64,000 nucleotides of DNA, from assembly GCA_963773945.1 (NCBI GenBank), contig CAVZDD010000005.1, positions 377,077 through 441,076 of the forward strand, in the 5' to 3' direction. Below the pieces are notes generated by a model. It was given only the letters and a program-made list of their open reading frames with translations. It was not told where the DNA came from and made no database searches. This document shows positions 15,972-52,657 of the stretch, piece after piece. The position numbers and the translations under genes were made by a program. Numbering within the stretch: the stretch's first letter is position 1; each line of letters begins with the position of its first letter. The stretch is from an uncultured Thermoplasmata archaeon (GTDB lineage Archaea > Thermoplasmatota > Thermoplasmata > Lutacidiplasmatales > UBA184).

Positions 15972-16889
15972 ATGGATTCCTTGGACATCCGGCTCTTACG
16001 TGCGATGTTCGTAGGAAACATCCTGTCGATCGGGGGTTTCGACCCTAGACTGTCGATCCAGGAGCTCGCACGATCGGTCGGGGCCAGTCGAGTCACCGTG
16101 CGTCGCCGCCTCGCCCGTTGGCGAGATGAAGGTTTTTGCAAAAGGGTCACCACGTTTCCGAACCCGGACGCACTTGGAACCTCGTTTCAGATGCAGTCTA
16201 TCGCACTCGACCGGGGAAGAACACGGAGCCGGTCTGAGACCGCACTGGTCGACCTCCTGGAACCCGCGTTCCTCTTCCAATCCGAGGACATCTATACCCC
16301 TGTCCTCATCGTAGAGGCTCCTAAGGTCTCCGACCGCCGCCAGAGCAGTCTCCGTGAAGTTGATGGAGTGAATGTCCTCTGTCCCCCTCTACCGTTCCCA
16401 TGCCCATCTTCCTCGGTACCGCTCGGGCTGAGGGACTGGAAGATCATCCGGTCTATGCGCCGATTTCCCTTTCCCGATTGGCCCGCGGTGTCGAAGGAAG
16501 TGGGGCTGACGGTCCGCGGTTTGCAACGAAGGGTGGCACGTCTCACGCAAGGCAACGCCCTCATGTTCCATCCCGAGCTCGACTTTCGTCGTTCGTCCAG
16601 CCCGGTGGCCTGGGTTGGTGTCCTTTTCGGTAGGGACGTCGAGAAGGCGCTGTTTGAGAAGGACATGATCCAACGATACCCTGACCTCCTTCGCGTGGAG
16701 CCAATACGAACGGGAGAATGCCCACCGCATGTCCGAAATGGCAAGTGGATGACCCTGTGGAGGTCCAACCAAGCCTTTGGGCCGGTACGATCAGGGATCA
16801 GGAGAGAATCATGCGAAGCAGAAGCGGAGAATTCCACGGGTCACGACGATTCCGGCAAGCGACTCTGTCATTCTTGGTCGCAGGGGTGA
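15972..16889 (+). CDS. tandem-HTH transcriptional regulator (two Lrp/AsnC-type HTH modules)
   Basis: LDIRLLRAMFVGN...IQELARSVGASRVTVRRRLARWRDEG, followed by a second module DWKIIRSMRR...VSKEVGLTVRGLQRRVARL. The 3' end overlaps the next gene, so the true stop or frame is uncertain. Confidence 0.5.
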   Translation: MDSLDIRLLRAMFVGNILSIGGFDPRLSIQELARSVGASRVTVRRRLARWRDEGFCKRVTTFPNPDALGTSFQMQSIALDRGRTRSRSETALVDLLEPAFLFQSEDIYTPVLIVEAPKVSDRRQSSLREVDGVNVLCPPLPFPCPSSSVPLGLRDWKIIRSMRRFPFPDWPAVSKEVGLTVRGLQRRVARLTQGNALMFHPELDFRRSSSPVAWVGVLFGRDVEKALFEKDMIQRYPDLLRVEPIRTGECPPHVRNGKWMTLWRSNQAFGPVRSGIRRESCEAEAENSTGHDDSGKRLCHSWSQG

Positions 16890-45195: not shown

Positions 45196-47150
45196 GTGGC
45201 TTCGAACCGTCGCCTCGCCGCGGTCATGTTCCTGGATATGGTGGGGTACACCGCGGCGACTCAGGCCGATGAGGCCCGGACCCTGGTCCTCTTGGAGGAA
45301 CAAGAGGAGCTTCTTCGTCCGGCGTTGTTGTTGTACAAGGTCGAGAAGTCAAGTCGACCGGCGATGGATTTCTCGTGGAGTTCGACAGCGCACTCAAGGC
45401 GACCCAGTGCGCCGTTGAGATCCAGCGCCGAATCCACGAACGCAACGCAAAGAAGGACGCCTCCCCCCTCCGTTTGCGCATCGGAATCCATCTGGGCGAC
45501 GTGGAGCAACGGGGCAGCGATATTTTCGGAGACGCCGTAAATATTGCGTCCCGGATTCAACCCGTGGCCGAGCCCGGTGGAATCTGCATTTCCAACGCAG
45601 TGCAGGAACAGGTTCGGAACAAGATTTCCGACCGACTGGAAAGGCTGCCGCCTGCGAAGCTCAAGGGTCTCGAGGGACCGGTGGAACTCTACCGGGTCGT
45701 ACTGCCCTGGGAGGTCTCGGTCTCCCCGGCGCCGGGTTCGCAACGGGCCCGGCTCGCGGTCCTCCCGTTGGCCAACATCAGCCCCGACCCCAAGGACGAG
45801 TACTTCGCGGATGGTCTCACGGAGGAGCTGATCACGGTGCTCTCCAAGATTCGGGAGCTCCGGGTCATCGCCCGAACCTCGGTGAGCCAGTACAAGGGCA
45901 GTTCAAAGTCCGTCTCCCAGATCGGGGCCGAACTCGGGGTCGCCTCCGTCCTGGAGGGCAGTGTGCGCAAGGCCGGCAATCAGTTACGCATTACGCTGCA
46001 ACTCATTGACGTGGCCACCGAGGAGCACACGTGGGCCGAGAGCTACGACCGGGAGCTCGCCAATGTATTCGCCATCCAGGGGGAGATTGCCGAGAAGACC
46101 GCCGGGGCTCTTCGGGTGGAGCTGCTGGGCCCCGACCGGGAATCCATCCGCAAGCGGCCCACCTCCAACCTCACTGCGTACAATCTCTACCTGAAGGGGC
46201 TGCACGCCGGGCATGGGGCGTCCTACGAATTCTATGCCGAGGCCATCAAGTTCTTCGAGGAGGCGATACAAAAGGATCCGAGTTTCGGGGTGGTCCACGC
46301 CGTTCTCGCGAACGAGTACATCAGTCTGGCCGGGGAAACGGTCGCCCCGAACGAGGCTTTTCCCCGCGCCCGGGAGCTTATCGCGAAGGCGCTCGAGCTG
46401 GACCCGAACTCCTCGGAAGCTCACTTGGCGCGGGCCAACCTCGCCATGCAAGACGACTTCAACTGGGCCGTCGCCGAGATGGAGTTCGAGCGCGCCATCG
46501 CGCTGAACCCGAGCAGCGCGCAGGCCCATTTCTGGTACGCGATGCTCCTCCGGATCCTCCAGAGATATGACGAGGCGATCGACGAGCTCCGAACCGCGTC
46601 CGAGCTGGACCCCTTGTGGAAACTTCTGGAGTCGTCGCTGGGAGAAACGTACGTCCGATCGGGAGATTTCGCGACGGCGTTGAGCCTGGCCGAAGAACAA
46701 CGGGACCGAGATCCCGGTGACGCCGACCCGCATTTGCTCCTGGGCTTCATCTACTTGCGCGCGGGTCGGCGACCCGAGGCCCAGCGGGAGGCGGAACTCG
46801 CGGTCGGGCCCCTCGACCTCGGGGACCGGAGACGCCGCGCCGCCCTCTGGGCCCTGCTGGGGAAGCCCGACGAAGCGCGGAAAATCGTTGCGGAGATGCA
46901 GGACCCCGCGCGAGGGCAATATGCCAGTCCTTGGCAGCTCGCCGCCCTCCTCTCGAGCATGGGGGAGAAGGAGGCCGCGCTCGCGGTGCTGGAACGCGAC
47001 GAGCGGGAGGGTGGCAAGGGGGGCCTCTGGTTCCACTCCGGGGAGGTCGCGTTCGACCCGATTCGACGGGATCCTCGCTTTCAGTCGTTGCTGAGGAATC
47101 TCAACCTTCCCGGGGACGAGAAAGGCTCCGCCTCCGCGGGCGCCAAGTGA
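45196..47150 (+). pseudogene. second adenylate/guanylate cyclase-TolB-N-TPR gene, frameshifted in a GTT repeat
   Basis: ORF 45196..45540 encodes the cyclase N-terminus (MASNRRLAAVMFLDMVGYTAAT...). The paralogous sequence then continues in the +1 frame (GREVKSTGDGFLVEFDSALKATQCAVEIQRR...). The switch falls in gcgttgttgttgtac, around 45318-45336. Confidence 0.7.
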
Positions 47151-47263: not shown

Positions 47264-47617
47264 TTGCAGCTCCAAGCCGGCGAGATCATCCTCGCGCAAC
47301 AGCCGACAGCGTTGTACTCTCAATTTGGACGGCCCTCCGGTCTCCTGGTCTTGACCAACGTTCGGCTCACGTTCGAGGTGTATTCGGCCGGGTACCTCCT
47401 TCCCTCTGTAGACCTGGGGCTGGACAAGCTCCTCAACGCCTACCCGATGCCCACCCAGGGGGACCTGATCATCGATTCTAAGACTCTGCTCACGGTGGAC
47501 ACGACCCAGGGCCGGTTACAGTTCGATCTTATGAACGCCCCCCAGTGGGCCCAATTGATCCTTCAGGCTCGTGCGAGCGTCCCTCCGCCACCCCCGCCCC
47601 CGCCGCCTCCGGTCTAA
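47264..47617 (+). CDS. hypothetical bacterial-PH-like domain protein with C-terminal poly-Pro tail
   Basis: 117 aa ending in PPPPPPPPPPPV. Confidence 0.45.
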   Translation: MQLQAGEIILAQQPTALYSQFGRPSGLLVLTNVRLTFEVYSAGYLLPSVDLGLDKLLNAYPMPTQGDLIIDSKTLLTVDTTQGRLQFDLMNAPQWAQLILQARASVPPPPPPPPPPV

Positions 47618-47681
47618 CGCCCGGAGGGGCACAATCTCTACCCTTAATCTAAAGGAACGGGTACCGTCTTTGGGTGCGATC

Positions 47682-48740
47682 ATGGCAGTTGATCCGGAGA
47701 AGTTGAATGCGTTCATGGGGAAGTTCGTCCAGGATCTTGGAGCGAATTTTCACGGGCCTTCTGTATTGATCGGGGAGCAGCTCGGGCTCTACAAAGCCCT
47801 CGCGGCCGCGGGACCCTCCACCTCGGCCCAGCTCGCGGAGCGCACGGGGGTGGGGGAGCGGTACCTTCGGGAGTGGCTGGCCGCCCAGGCCGCTTCGGGC
47901 TATGTGGAGTACGACCCGACCACCCACCAATTCTCGATGACGCCCGAGCAGAAGTTCGCGTTGACCGATGAGGAGAGTCCGGCCTACATTCCTGGGGCGT
48001 TCTACAGCGCCGCCTCCCTCTACAAAGACCAGCGGAAGATTGCGGACGCGGTTCGGGCCGGCAATGGCCTCGGATGGCACGAGCACCACAACGACCTGTT
48101 CGTCGGGACCCGAAAATTCTTCCGGCCCGGTTACCTGGCGAACCTCGTCAGTGCCTGGCTACCCGCTCTAGAAGACGTCGTGCCGAAGCTGAAGGCGGGC
48201 GCGCAAGTGGCCGACGTGGGATGCGGCCTCGGAGCCTCCACGATCATCATGGCCAAGGCCTTCCCCAAATCGAAGTTCCTGGGGTTCGACTACCATCTCG
48301 AGTCGATCGAATGGGCCCGGAACGACGCCGTGTCCCAAGGGGTGACTCAAAACGCCGATTTCGAATTCGCGACCGCGAAGAGTTTCCGGGGCCAGGACTA
48401 CGATCTCGTGACGTTCTTCGATTGCCTGCACGACATGGGGGACCCGGTAGGGGCGGTGGAGCATGTGCGGAAGTCCCTCAAACCCGATGGCACGCTGATG
48501 GCGGTCGAGCCATTCGCCCACGAGCACCTGGAAGAGAATCTCAACCCCGTGGGCCGCGTCTTCTACAGCGCATCGATGCTGATCTGCGTTCCGTGTTCCC
48601 TCTCGCAAGAGGTGGGGAAGGGCCTGGGAGCCCAGGCCAGCGACTCGAGTCTTTTCGAGGTGTTCCGGGCCGGAGGGTTCACCCGGGTGCGCAAGCCGGT
48701 CGAAACGCCGTTCAACCGGGTCTTCGAGGCGCGACCGTAG
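47682..48740 (+). CDS. SAM-dependent O-methyltransferase-like protein with N-terminal winged-helix/dimerisation domain
   Basis: ATG at 47682 verified in frame. VADVGCGLGASTI motif I, DLVTFFDCLHDM and LKPDGTLM. Confidence 0.75.
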   Translation: MAVDPEKLNAFMGKFVQDLGANFHGPSVLIGEQLGLYKALAAAGPSTSAQLAERTGVGERYLREWLAAQAASGYVEYDPTTHQFSMTPEQKFALTDEESPAYIPGAFYSAASLYKDQRKIADAVRAGNGLGWHEHHNDLFVGTRKFFRPGYLANLVSAWLPALEDVVPKLKAGAQVADVGCGLGASTIIMAKAFPKSKFLGFDYHLESIEWARNDAVSQGVTQNADFEFATAKSFRGQDYDLVTFFDCLHDMGDPVGAVEHVRKSLKPDGTLMAVEPFAHEHLEENLNPVGRVFYSASMLICVPCSLSQEVGKGLGAQASDSSLFEVFRAGGFTRVRKPVETPFNRVFEARP

Positions 48741-48848
48741 GGCCCCAATCGGTCGTTGAGCCGTGGAACGCCCCCGGAAAGGAATCCGTCAACGGCAGCT
48801 AGCAAAGGACCGTGCCGGCGGTGCCGGATCGGGGGGGGTCGACCGATA

Positions 48849-49259
48849 TCACTCGATCTCCGAGCGAAGCAGGACTGCACGATATCCGATGGGCACGTCC
48901 GCCAGCATCACCGGCCAGGAACCGCCGAACCGCGCGGGATCTGTCGTGAATTCTAGGTGGAGATTGGCCGCCAGCTTCTCGAAGCCCTGCTGGAGTTGCC
49001 CCGCGAACCGGTTCAAGTCGCTCGATCGGCTATCGACTGGAACGAGCCGAAGCTGAGCCTCGTTCAGCGAGGCATTCACGTCGAGGTAGCCGGCATAGGC
49101 ACTGACAGAGATTTCGGGTTCGTGGAGCTGGAAATTCGATCGGAATAGATCCGCTCCCAACATGACGTCCCGGACGGCGGTGAAGACACGAAATTTCAGC
49201 CGTTCTCGGACCTTCATGGCCCGTTCCTGTTCTCGCCGAGAAAGCTGCGCCGGATCCAT
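48849..49259 (-). CDS. hypothetical protein
   Basis: An internal ATG at 49259 (MDPAQLSRREQ...). The upstream part of the ORF is Arg/Pro-rich noise. Confidence 0.35.
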   Translation of the reverse strand: MDPAQLSRREQERAMKVRERLKFRVFTAVRDVMLGADLFRSNFQLHEPEISVSAYAGYLDVNASLNEAQLRLVPVDSRSSDLNRFAGQLQQGFEKLAANLHLEFTTDPARFGGSWPVMLADVPIGYRAVLLRSEIE

Positions 49260-50307: not shown

Positions 50308-50823
50308 ATGAGTCTCGCAGAGGTGCAGACGTGGGTGAGCATCGCGGCGTCGTTGGCGCTCGTGGCATCGGTGATGATTTTAGCATACAACGTGCGGGCA
50401 AGCCGGATCGACGCGCGACGAAACCTAGCTTTCTCGATGATGGAACGACTTACCTCAGCGGACTTTGCGGAGCGCCGATGGAAAATGCACCAATCGGTCG
50501 AGGCCGCCGCTGCCGCCGGTTGGCGGGAGTTCGGCAATAGTCTGGAGGATTTTGAAAGCCGGTCCTTCGCCTATCAGTATGAACTCATCGGCCAGATGGT
50601 GAAGTCGGGAACGCTGGACTACTTGCTAGTCCGGGATTTCATGCGGTACACTGTAGTGACGGACTGGAACGCATTCGAGCCGTTGGATACGCATCTCAAG
50701 GAACGGTATCCGGGACGCCCGAGCCCCTGGACTCGGTTCCGGCAATTGGCCAAGCGGATCACCACAGAACTAGAAGGTCCACAGCTGAGGGGAGAGGAAC
50801 CTCCCGCCCCCAGCGTATATTGA
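50308..50823 (+). CDS. DUF4760-like protein, N-terminal TM anchor (paralog of 20404..20943)
   Basis: TM WVSIAASLALVASVMILAYN, then the shared core with the first copy. Confidence 0.5.
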   Translation: MSLAEVQTWVSIAASLALVASVMILAYNVRASRIDARRNLAFSMMERLTSADFAERRWKMHQSVEAAAAAGWREFGNSLEDFESRSFAYQYELIGQMVKSGTLDYLLVRDFMRYTVVTDWNAFEPLDTHLKERYPGRPSPWTRFRQLAKRITTELEGPQLRGEEPPAPSVY

Positions 50824-50983
50824 ACGCGCTTCCTGGAAGACCGGTTAAGTTCCTATCTCCGCGCCGCTCGGGGAGAAATCGGTCATTCCGGCGACATCCA
50901 AACCGGTTCTCGCCCAACTGCTTGCGGCAGATGTAACTAGTGACGACGGCTTCCCCTTCGGTGAGTGTCGGGGGGGACCGAGA

Positions 50984-52120
50984 TTGCTAGTAGGCGCAGC
51001 GGAAGTGGAGTTCGCCGGAAGGATGGCCATGATGGCAGCAGCACAGGGAGCCGCTTCGATCCAAGCAGCTGCCGCGGCAGCGATGCATGGAACCGAGGCT
51101 ATCCGAGGGACGTTAGCGCTCCGTGGATCGGAAATGATCCGGGGGACGAGCCTGGTTGCCGGTCGAATGGCTCGCGGAACGGAAGCGTTGAGGGGCGCGC
51201 TCGCCCTACATGGGTCGGAAGCGATCCGGGGGGCAAGGATGGTTCCCGGTCGGATGGCTCGCGGAACGGAAGCGTTGAGGGGCGCGCTCGCCTTACATGG
51301 GTCGGAAGCGATCCGGGGGGCAAGGATGGTTCCCGGTCGGATGGCTCGGGGAACGGAGGCTTTGACCGGCGCGCTCGCCCTACATGGGTCGGAAGCGATT
51401 CGGGGGACGAGCCTGGTTGCCGGTCGGATGGCTCGGGGAACGGAAGCCTTGAGGGGCGCGCTCGCCTTACATGGGTCGGAGGCGATCCCGGGGGCACGCA
51501 TTGTTCCCGGTCGGATCGCTCGCGGCGCAGACGAATTGAGTGGAGCGCTCGCGCTTCGTGCATCGGAAGCGATTCGGGGGGCAAGCATTGTTCCTGGCCG
51601 GGTCGCGCGCGGAACTGATGAATTGAGGGGCGCGCTCGCCCTACATGGGTCGGAAGCGATCCGGGGGGCAAGCCTGGTTGCCGGTCGGATGGCTCGGGGA
51701 ACGGAAGCTTTGACTGGCGCGCTCGCCTTACATGGGTCGGAAGCGATTCGGGGGGCGAGCACCGTTCCCGGTCGGATGGCTCGCGGAACGGAAGCTTTGA
51801 CCGGCGCGCTCGCCTTACATGGATCGGAAGCGATTCGGGGGGCGAGCACCGTTCCCGGTCGGTTGGCTCGCGGCACCGAGGCCCTGAGAGGTACGATGGC
51901 ACTCGGGGCGGCGGACCTGATGCGAGGAGCGAACGCGGCTCACGATCGGATTGCGGCCCAAGGCGCGGCGGCGACCCGTTTCTGGGCAGGGGTAGCGGCT
52001 CGGGGCGCGGCAGCGATTCACGCCATGGCCGCTCTCCAAGGACTTGTGGCCAAGGGGATCGGTACGAAGGCACTGGGCCTCAAAGCGTTGGCAAACCGAG
52101 GGGCGATTATCGCTCGGTGA
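50984..52120 (+). CDS. repeat protein with ~9.5 tandem 29-aa Ala/Gly/Arg-rich repeats (strand assignment tentative)
   Basis: GRMARGTEALRGALALHGSEAIRGARMVP reiterated. It has unique N- and C-terminal tails and is preceded by a 160-nt intergenic region. The minus strand also carries long ORFs (50845..51876) over the same repeats. Confidence 0.4.
   Translation: MLVGAAEVEFAGRMAMMAAAQGAASIQAAAAAAMHGTEAIRGTLALRGSEMIRGTSLVAGRMARGTEALRGALALHGSEAIRGARMVPGRMARGTEALRGALALHGSEAIRGARMVPGRMARGTEALTGALALHGSEAIRGTSLVAGRMARGTEALRGALALHGSEAIPGARIVPGRIARGADELSGALALRASEAIRGASIVPGRVARGTDELRGALALHGSEAIRGASLVAGRMARGTEALTGALALHGSEAIRGASTVPGRMARGTEALTGALALHGSEAIRGASTVPGRLARGTEALRGTMALGAADLMRGANAAHDRIAAQGAAATRFWAGVAARGAAAIHAMAALQGLVAKGIGTKALGLKALANRGAIIAR
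51075..51900. repeat. 87-bp near-identical tandem repeat array (~9.5 copies)
   Basis: Units such as ATGGCTCGCGGAACGGAAGCGTTGAGGGGCGCGCTCGCCCTACATGGGTCGGAAGCGATCCGGGGGGCAAGGATGGTTCCCGGTCGG recur head-to-tail with a few substitutions. Confidence 0.85.
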
Positions 52121-52216
52121 AACTCCAGCACGCCGGCAGCTGGAAGCTGCGGGGCCACTCTTGGGTCCCGATCGTTGACATCGATGACTAACGCGTCGCC
52201 GGTCGGGGAGGAACTC

Positions 52217-52657
52217 CTACTCAGCTAGCGCGTTGTTGGCCGCGCGGAGCCGACGGCTCATCTCCGCGAGAACACTGAGCACCACCACTGGTTCGCTCGC
52301 GGCGTACGCCCAAAACTCCCACTTCGACAGGGTGGCGAGCCTCGACGGACGGAGCGTCACCACATCGGCGGACCGGGGTTGATCGTCGAACAGCGACATT
52401 TCGCCGAAGAATTGCCCAGTGCCCAATCGCGCGAGGCGACGACTCCCGATCCGGACCTCCGTCGATCCTTCGAGGATCAGAAAGAGCCCATTCCCGGACT
52501 CCCCGCGTTTGACAACGGTCTCGCCCGCTGCAAAGTCGACCACCTTCGCATATTTCGCGAGGGTCGATAATTGACGTGGGGAAAGCACTCCGAGGATTGT
52601 GACCTTCTTGAGCCGTTTCACCAACTGGCTCGCCGAATACGTCGACGACTTCGACAT
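52217..52657 (-). CDS. standalone cyclic-nucleotide-binding (CAP-effector-type) domain protein, no DNA-binding domain
   Basis: GQFFGEMSLF and RSADVVT phosphate-binding cassette. The protein ends right after the C-helix (146 aa). Confidence 0.8.
   Translation of the reverse strand: MSKSSTYSASQLVKRLKKVTILGVLSPRQLSTLAKYAKVVDFAAGETVVKRGESGNGLFLILEGSTEVRIGSRRLARLGTGQFFGEMSLFDDQPRSADVVTLRPSRLATLSKWEFWAYAASEPVVVLSVLAEMSRRLRAANNALAE

Follow-up and report, generated by a model that had tools for sequence, protein, structure and literature searches.

A tandem-repeat gene beside a cyclic-nucleotide-binding gene in an uncultured Thermoplasmata archaeon, and a candidate family of basic proteins with differing repeat units

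Results

Structure of the locus

A stretch of 64,000 nucleotides from an uncultured Thermoplasmata archaeon (GenBank assembly GCA_963773945.1, contig CAVZDD010000005.1, positions 377,077 to 441,076), hereafter the window, contains a tandem array of 87-bp units, first noticed in a reading of the bare sequence (the original prediction). The array takes up the middle of an open reading frame (ORF) on the + strand, 50984..52120, which lies between a DUF4760 gene (50308-50823, +) and a convergent, stand-alone cyclic-nucleotide-binding (CNB) domain gene (52217..52657, -; Pfam cNMP_binding, E=1e-18); both neighbours had been named correctly. Read from a TTG codon at 50984, the ORF codes for 378 amino acids (36 kDa, isoelectric point (pI) about 11.8, net charge about +22), of which Ala makes up 25%, Gly 16% and Arg 12%. 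It opens with a 33-residue N-terminal motif, MLVGAAEVEFAGRMAMMAAAQGAASIQAAAAAA (50984..51082, +), conserved in the relatives described below. A degenerate half-unit, HGTEAIRGTLALR (51077..51124, +, as read from the sequence and the unit layout), leads to nine units of 29 residues with the consensus GSEAIRGASMVPGRMARGTEALRGALALH (51125..51907, +). Further on come a non-repeat linker motif, ATRFWAGVAARGAAAIHAM (51971..52027, +), shared with a relative whose array is of KGIVA type, and a C-terminal tail (52043..52117, +) that reads in a five-residue rhythm, LVAKG IGTKA LGLKA LANRG AIIAR.

Tandem Repeats Finder (TRF) reported a single array where it had been predicted, at 51124-51873, with a period of 87 bp, 8.6 copies, 85% matches, no indels and a score of 989, and the window holds no other tandem repeat. 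One 26-mer of the unit is present 8 times where 0 are expected. TRF's additional period of 261 bp is due to an SLVAG variant, which recurs in units 1, 4 and 7. Phased on the + ORF, the array comprises nine 29-residue units at 51125-51907 with the degenerate half-unit upstream and degenerate sequence downstream, and the span originally given, 51075-51900 with about 9.5 units, is fair if it is taken to include the half-unit (51077-51124) and the last unit, which is diverged (51821-51907). The description of the units as near-perfect, differing by a few substitutions, was overstated: any two units agree at 61-81 of the 87 bases (70-93%), none is an exact copy of another, and units 5, 6 and 9 show 76-85% identity to the consensus. 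Adjacent units are no more similar to each other than distant ones. With such divergence, and no excess similarity between neighbours, the recent expansion or ongoing concerted evolution read from the array is not borne out. The unit can be read as two 12-residue halves, GSEAIRGASLVA and GTEALRGALALH, placed around a segment of five residues, GRMAR. As phased here its glycines are spaced 6-6-5-6-6, its basic residue is Arg, not Lys, and sequence autocorrelation rises from 0.13 at lag 5 to 0.25 at lag 6 and reaches 0.63 at lag 29.

Relatives share the start, a putative promoter and the CNB neighbour

Orthologues of the downstream cNMP_binding gene (63-76% identical) led to relatives of the repeat gene. 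At the loci designated L013-15, L016, L019 and L022, an unannotated, Ala-rich tandem-repeat gene stands convergent with the CNB gene, and a 319-aa gene with two helix-turn-helix (HTH) domains lies between them; at L010-12 the place between the CNB and repeat genes is taken by a metallo-beta-lactamase (MBL) fold gene. The N-terminus of the window protein, read from TTG 50984, is MLVGAAEVEFAGRMAMMAAAQGAASIQ, and its counterparts are MMLGVAEAEAAGRLAALAAARAAAAIQ at L013, MLMGAAELEAAGQAARMAALQAAAAMQ at L016, MILGAAELETVGNAARMAALHAAAAIQ at L019 and MIVGIAEAEAAGRAAAMAAAKAAAAMQ at L022. By tblastn they are 55-61% identical to the window protein over the first 30-31 residues (L013, L016 and L022) or 44% identical over 43 (L019), and every one of these four matches begins at residue 1 of its ORF. 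Twelve positions are invariant across seven species (M1, G4, A6, E7, E9, G12, A15, A18, A19, A23, A24 and Q27), which gives the family motif M-x-x-G-x-A-E-x-E-x-x-G...A-A...A-A-x-x-Q at the start codon, present in the window as well. Over the first 33 codons the seven species differ by 0.30, 0.21 and 0.60 substitutions per site at codon positions 1, 2 and 3, the signature of a coding sequence.

The same alignment corrects the start of the gene. Gene callers in public assemblies chose the + strand with a start at ATG 51029, giving a product of 363 aa. The ATG codons of the relatives align exactly with TTG 50984 of the window, where the conserved motif begins, and the 363-aa call therefore loses part of that motif. 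As far as sequence alignment can tell, the start is most likely TTG 50984 (378 aa) and not ATG 51029. Gene callers had also mis-started the orthologues at L016 and L022, one too long and the other too short.

Similarity extends into the DNA ahead of the gene. In the loci checked, a GGCAGGATTAATA-like block starts 57-61 nt ahead of the start codon. Its version in the window, GGCAGATGTAACTA (50926..50939, +; GGCAGGATTAATA/ACTA in the relatives), resembles a B recognition element and TATA box and is a putative promoter; this TATA-like pattern occurs once in the 64 kb, both strands considered. Also conserved across the relatives are two blocks at about -125 and -105 and a purine-rich stretch. The first, block A, TTCCTATCTCCGCGC (50850..50864, +), lies some 125 nt ahead of the start codon, can be aligned to TTCCGnTTTCCGCG-like blocks preceding the orthologues at six other loci and is a possible regulatory site. 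Block B, GGGGAGAAATCGGTC (50870..50884, +), emerged from the upstream alignment of seven species and is found once in the window. The purine-rich stretch, GGGGGGGACCGA (50970..50981, +), immediately precedes the start codon, is a presumed Shine-Dalgarno-like element and aligns with CGGGGG/GGGAGG-ACCGA of the relatives. The dyad sites said to flank the array do exist, and two of them overlap the conserved upstream blocks, one arm of a dyad overlapping block A, but with 9-12 nt they are short, and at 83-89% complementarity they are imperfect.

For a wider survey the N-terminal motif was turned into a degenerate DNA pattern. In GTDB genomes it retrieved 42 stretches, of which only four belong to the family, with the motif anchored at a start codon and followed by repeats, and all four are from Thermoplasmata metagenome-assembled genomes (MAGs); contigs of JGI metagenomes added eight further members. 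The CNB gene adjoins the repeat gene or is one gene away at L010-L016, L019, L022, L039, L053, L075, L101, L103 and L114, while the other neighbours differ. HTH and CNB genes both accompany the repeat gene at L039, L053, L075, L101 and L103, and at L114, as in the window, the CNB gene is directly convergent with the repeat gene and no HTH gene intervenes. At the more distant loci L025-L027, no family member was found in the corresponding position. These comparisons indicate that the repeat gene is the local orthologue of an undescribed family, confined in these searches to one uncultured group of Thermoplasmata. The literature search returned nothing on such a family. It is the alignment of the orthologues' conserved N-terminus, start codon and promoter with the + ORF that gives the + strand its strongest support, and the array is thus coding on the + strand, as the middle of a genuine gene at 50984-52120.

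The intervening HTH gene is itself conserved (316-319 aa; L013 5671-6630, L016 5649-6608, L019 6490-7440, L022 6553-7512) and has weak matches of AsnC/MarR type. It is absent between the CNB and repeat genes of the window and L114, and the sole match in the window is weak (15972-16559, 23% identity). Synteny was also sought through the upstream DUF4760 gene and given up, its orthologues (76-81% identical) lying in unrelated contexts with no repeat gene. Between the convergent stop codons of the repeat and CNB genes, the window carries a hairpin, CCGGCAGCT GGA AGCTGCGGG (52133..52153), with a 9-bp stem and a 3-nt loop. Scans of the window for Rfam families and tRNAs gave no hits.

Repeat units across species

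Beyond the common N-terminus the family members diverge in their arrays. All members examined are strongly basic, with pI values of 10.8-12 and a net charge between +16 and +30, and most are rich in Ala (19-48%). Their repeat periods are 15, 30, 45, 54, 60 or 87 bp. Units of five residues include ALTKA, GALTK, KGIVA, ALAKA and AAVAK, units of ten are AKIAS/AKVAx and AKAAVVPAVV, and L114 has an 18-residue unit, AASMTIAASRAAAGTRDL; a 15-aa unit and a 20-aa unit are also found among the relatives, next to the 29-aa unit of the window. One pair, L016 and L091, shares about 84% DNA identity and differs by a 30-bp in-frame indel (20 versus 22 units). The lability ascribed to the array thus holds on a longer timescale, across species, where unit length and sequence differ and this pair shows a two-unit indel. 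At L039 (1568-2035, +) a normal N-terminal motif precedes a 30-bp array that encodes the Pro/Arg/Leu-rich unit GLLRLGPTRA and not an Ala-rich one; this could be a frame-shifted reading of the ancestral array or a true replacement of the unit.

Some of these arrays score as pentapeptide repeats. The L053 protein scores 26.3 bits with PF00805 (cut-off 20.2) and the L022 protein 42 bits with PF13599 (cut-off 38); the latter, with an array of ALAKA type, also matches the solved pentapeptide-repeat proteins 3du1, 2j8k, 2o6w and 6zt4 (best E=1.6e-14). The window protein gave no match to Pentapeptide models at E<=10. Its linker ARGAAAIHAM and its C-terminal tail align with the KGIVA-type protein of L012, and in tblastn run without composition correction the C-terminal 80 residues are 48% identical to L010/L012 over 56 residues (E about 2e-10). 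The tail is likely a remnant of a pentapeptide array, to judge from this alignment.

Searches with the window protein itself were less informative. A word-indexed protein search with the 378-aa ORF returned 8000 candidates, none significant, and we suspect that low-complexity words had saturated it; neither GTDB genomes nor JGI metagenomes yielded a relative in protein-seeded scans, and nothing usable came from Pfam, NCBIfam, PHROGs, PADLOC or PDB. An exhaustive HMMER search of 1.84 billion representatives did produce matches with E values down to 4.8e-29. They are long proteins with repeats of period 6, 12 or 18, several of them carrying beta-solenoid or fibre-type Pfam domains. With 20-43% identity over repetitive sequence (about 25% for the strongest) they reflect shared periodicity and were rejected as homologues.

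Alternative explanations of the array

The alternative that survives best concerns the fold. The encoded periodicity had been likened to HEAT/PBS-lyase-type helical repeats, and more broadly the protein might be an alpha-helical repeat protein (HEAT/PBS-lyase-like, another alpha-solenoid or a coiled coil) whose 29-residue unit makes eight helical turns. Ala, Leu, Arg and Glu favour helix, and 29/8 equals 3.625 residues per turn, near the alpha-helical period. AlphaFold, applied to the whole protein and to four units with a shifted-unit alignment, produced all-helix models, but these consist of long continuous helices, not hairpins, and their predicted local distance difference test (pLDDT) values of 54 and 37 are too low to count; models of such low confidence neither support nor exclude a solenoid. 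No HEAT/PBS-type Pfam model matched the window protein, whether the limit was E<=1 or E<=10, nor did any PDB sequence at E<=1. Since glycine recurs every five to six residues and the hydrophobic moment is highest at 124 degrees (0.42; at 100 degrees it is 0.17), HEAT-like hairpins or a classic amphipathic helix fit poorly, and it is as pentapeptide repeats that two relatives score. The best matches of the exhaustive search, too, have period-6/12/18 repeats and include proteins with beta-solenoid or fibre domains. On balance a helical fold is unlikely. Pentapeptide repeats form beta-helices in solved structures, and because some relatives score as such repeats, the simpler guess for the window protein, made by analogy, is a rod of the beta-solenoid type.

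A second alternative, put forward in the original prediction, is a contingency-like locus, in which copy number would change frequently by slippage or recombination and supply a population with protein variants. The array is indeed tandem and in frame, and within the family arrays vary in unit and number across species, down to the two units that separate L016 from L091. Short-read contigs break in the arrays: the Logan contig L002 stops within the last unit, at window position 51833, and contigs L010-L012, L020, L021 and L058 likewise end inside theirs. Short-read assemblers, however, usually break at repeats, and family members can therefore be expected to be often truncated or missing in MAGs. 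Against copy-number change stands the array itself, which shows not one base of difference among three assemblies of near-identical strains whose flanks differ by single-nucleotide polymorphisms (SNPs). The identical 363-aa product is found on contig_6243 of ENA ERZ25039507 (2.0 Mb) and in GCA_049581325.1 (8.8 kb). Over 8767 bp the latter has 8 SNPs and no gaps relative to the window, with no SNP in the array, and the ENA contig has 142 mismatches over 7.1 kb, nearly all in 48000-49000. Neither differs from the window anywhere in 50750-52250. The array is thus reproducible across assemblies, and no copy-number variation was seen among the three, a small sample. In addition, diverged units whose neighbours are not closer to each other make a poor substrate for slippage, and since 87 = 3 x 29, a change of copy number cannot shift the frame or switch the gene off. 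A contingency-like locus is accordingly very unlikely.

The divergent segment of the ENA contig (L004) deserves separate mention. About 130 of the 142 mismatches fall in window positions 48000-49000, which cover the 3' part of a methyltransferase gene (47571-48740) and the region beyond, while identity over the remainder of the 7 kb is about 99.8%; the segment looks like a locally divergent or recombined one.

A third possibility is that the array is a non-functional, GC-rich minisatellite, the open frames being by-products and the called protein spurious. Four of the six frames are open over the array: the three already listed in the original prediction (+ 50984..52120, - 50845..51876 and - 51099..52073) and a fourth, + 50965..51618. 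A stop-free GC-rich unit with a length that is a multiple of 3 would give several open frames by itself. GC content is rather flat over the codon positions of the array (0.72/0.65/0.65, against 0.68/0.49/0.77 in long genes of the window), a composition of Ala, Gly and Arg is what GC-rich noise yields, and codon-usage log-odds, for which 25 long ORFs of the window served as the training set, are about zero across the array. The exhaustive search, as stated above, revealed no protein homologues beyond matches at the level of periodicity. Other properties are those of a gene. Position 3 of the + frame takes 55 of the 88 differences between units and 22 of the 41 variable columns, codon usage is normal in the unique C-terminal tail (log-odds 0.24, training-gene mean 0.25), and start position, N-terminal motif, promoter block and neighbourhood are kept across species together with a coding pattern of substitution. 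We regard a minisatellite as highly improbable.

The preference for the + strand expressed from the outset is upheld by codon usage (the - ORFs score -0.17 to -0.30, and all their segments are negative, -0.15 to -0.34), by synonymous first-position changes in Leu and Arg codons, of which the + frame has 18-30 and the - frame none, and by the orthologues; the array was also rightly described as encoding a 29-aa Ala/Gly/Arg unit. Coding by the minus-strand ORF 50845..51876, whose synonymous share of between-unit differences (0.51) is as high as that of the + frame (0.47), a measure that cannot separate the two because they share third positions, can practically be dismissed, as this ORF begins within the last unit, has log-odds of -0.17 overall and -0.21 in its unique tail, lacks the Leu/Arg changes just mentioned, and leaves the conserved N-terminal motif, start codon and promoter to the + frame.

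The CNB neighbour and possible function

Pairing of the repeat gene with a CNB gene persists in contexts that otherwise differ, and a gene for an adenylate/guanylate cyclase with TPR repeats lies near the locus in the window (45375-47150, +) and also at L025/L026. For these reasons, a link between the repeat protein and cyclic-nucleotide signalling is suggested, its basis being gene adjacency. Reading of the window protein sequence, with no signal-peptide predictor run, revealed no evident signal peptide or membrane segment.

Several genes of the neighbourhood resemble components of Pycsar systems. In PADLOC the CNB protein (52217-52657, -) has its best matches in the CNB portions of Pycsar effectors (PycTIR, E=1.9e-21), a weak match links the cyclase-TPR gene (45375-47150, +) with PycC (E=2.7e-6), and at L010-L012 and L016 an Apyc1-like MBL-fold gene adjoins the CNB gene. 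The resemblances are at the domain level only, and an effector domain is absent.

Discussion

Our results describe the 87-bp array as ordinary in kind: it is the repeat domain of a lineage-specific protein, and probably neither a contingency locus nor HEAT-like. The explanation that we propose combines a + strand gene, its membership in a family, turnover of its repeats and a function as a cationic rod, and as a whole we consider it probable. For its core, comprising the gene, the family and the turnover of repeats, we would say very probable. According to it, units of the repeat region would be gained, lost and replaced in frame from one species to another. The repeats of most relatives are five residues long or multiples of five, and the window genome has instead a 29-residue unit that no longer fits the pentapeptide model. 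What selection appears to maintain is charge, composition and the rhythm of glycines and hydrophobic residues rather than the exact sequence.

The functional part is doubtful and is offered tentatively. The protein might be an extended, positively charged rod or solenoid, its conserved N-terminus serving as a docking or assembly (interaction) element, possibly for the CNB protein, and its repeat body, selected for charge and rhythm, binding a polyanionic partner such as nucleic acid. A bolder version would see here a new class of self-assembling cationic solenoid or filament proteins linked to cyclic nucleotides in soil and peat Thermoplasmata. An N-terminal helix would dock the CNB protein or drive assembly, and the repeat body would be replaceable across species, the geometry of its coil changing with units of 5, 18 or 29 residues while function is kept. 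We think this quite unlikely; if true, it would amount to a natural experiment in which repeat and fold have been swapped inside one orthologous gene.

Several observations weigh against the explanation proposed here. The N-terminal similarity is Ala-rich, and with composition correction the match disappears from tblastn and reaches E=0.29 in BLASTP; for this reason the family link rests on the position of the motif, the promoter DNA, synteny and architecture taken together. The flat GC profile of the array and its neutral codon score are unlike those of the long genes of the window, and the low-confidence AlphaFold models lend a solenoid no support, though they do not speak against it either. 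Comparison of the window units with a pentapeptide-type array in hhalign gave a probability of 0.05%, that is, no detectable homology between the arrays. Finally, the repeat and CNB genes are convergent and do not form one operon, and adjacency is their sole link.

What has been gained is first the resolution of an ambiguous multi-frame array into a real gene, with its strand fixed, its start codon corrected and a putative promoter located by comparison. One orthologous gene, anchored by its N-terminus, promoter and neighbour, bears unrelated-looking units in different species, and the family is thus a convenient case for studying how repeat domains get replaced and what selection preserves in them. 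Through the pairing with a CNB gene, the function of a protein from uncultured archaea becomes open to experiment.

Four kinds of known systems invite comparison. Phase-variable contingency loci share with the window a tandem repeat that sits within a coding region, but the unit here is long, diverged and in frame, and the three assemblies show no copy-number variation. Near-identical units, differences in copy number between strains (in this small sample) and on/off switching were all absent from the window.

A rhythm of the form G-x-x-x-hydrophobic-x is common to the window protein and to proteins with Bactofilin (PF04519) or RDM3_C (PF23348) domains and tail-fibre Peptidase_S74 proteins with Gly at every sixth residue. 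Those proteins are very long and multidomain, and the window protein matches none of these Pfam domains; that of Bactofilin is present only in some of the distant matches of the exhaustive search. We read the likeness as shared periodicity, not homology.

HC2 proteins (PF07382), Lys/Ala-rich bacterial proteins resembling histone H1, are likewise highly basic, rich in Ala and built of low-complexity tandem repeats, and the KGIVA-type relative reaches 30.6 bits with the HC2 model, below the cut-off of 40 and driven by composition. The window protein differs in having Arg instead of Lys and a regular hydrophobic residue every 5-6 positions, and has no match to HC2.

The closest comparison is with pentapeptide-repeat (Rfr) proteins (PF00805/PF13599), among which All3740 (3du1), Np275/Np276 (2j8k), Rfr (2o6w) and MfpA (6zt4) are the solved examples matched by the L022 protein. 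Two orthologues of the window gene pass the Pfam gathering scores, the C-terminal tail of the window protein has a short five-residue rhythm, and ASLVA, GRMAR and GALAL of its unit fit, by eye, the pattern small-x-hydrophobic. It departs from them in its 29-residue unit, its 6-6-5-6-6 glycine spacing and the lack of Pfam and PDB matches. The family as a whole is set apart by its basic character (pI 10.8-12) and by a conserved N-terminal motif without PDB match. MfpA and Qnr are acidic DNA mimics. On the present comparisons, we propose that the repeat gene and its relatives form a small undescribed archaeal family related to pentapeptide-repeat proteins, and that the window protein is a variant within it.

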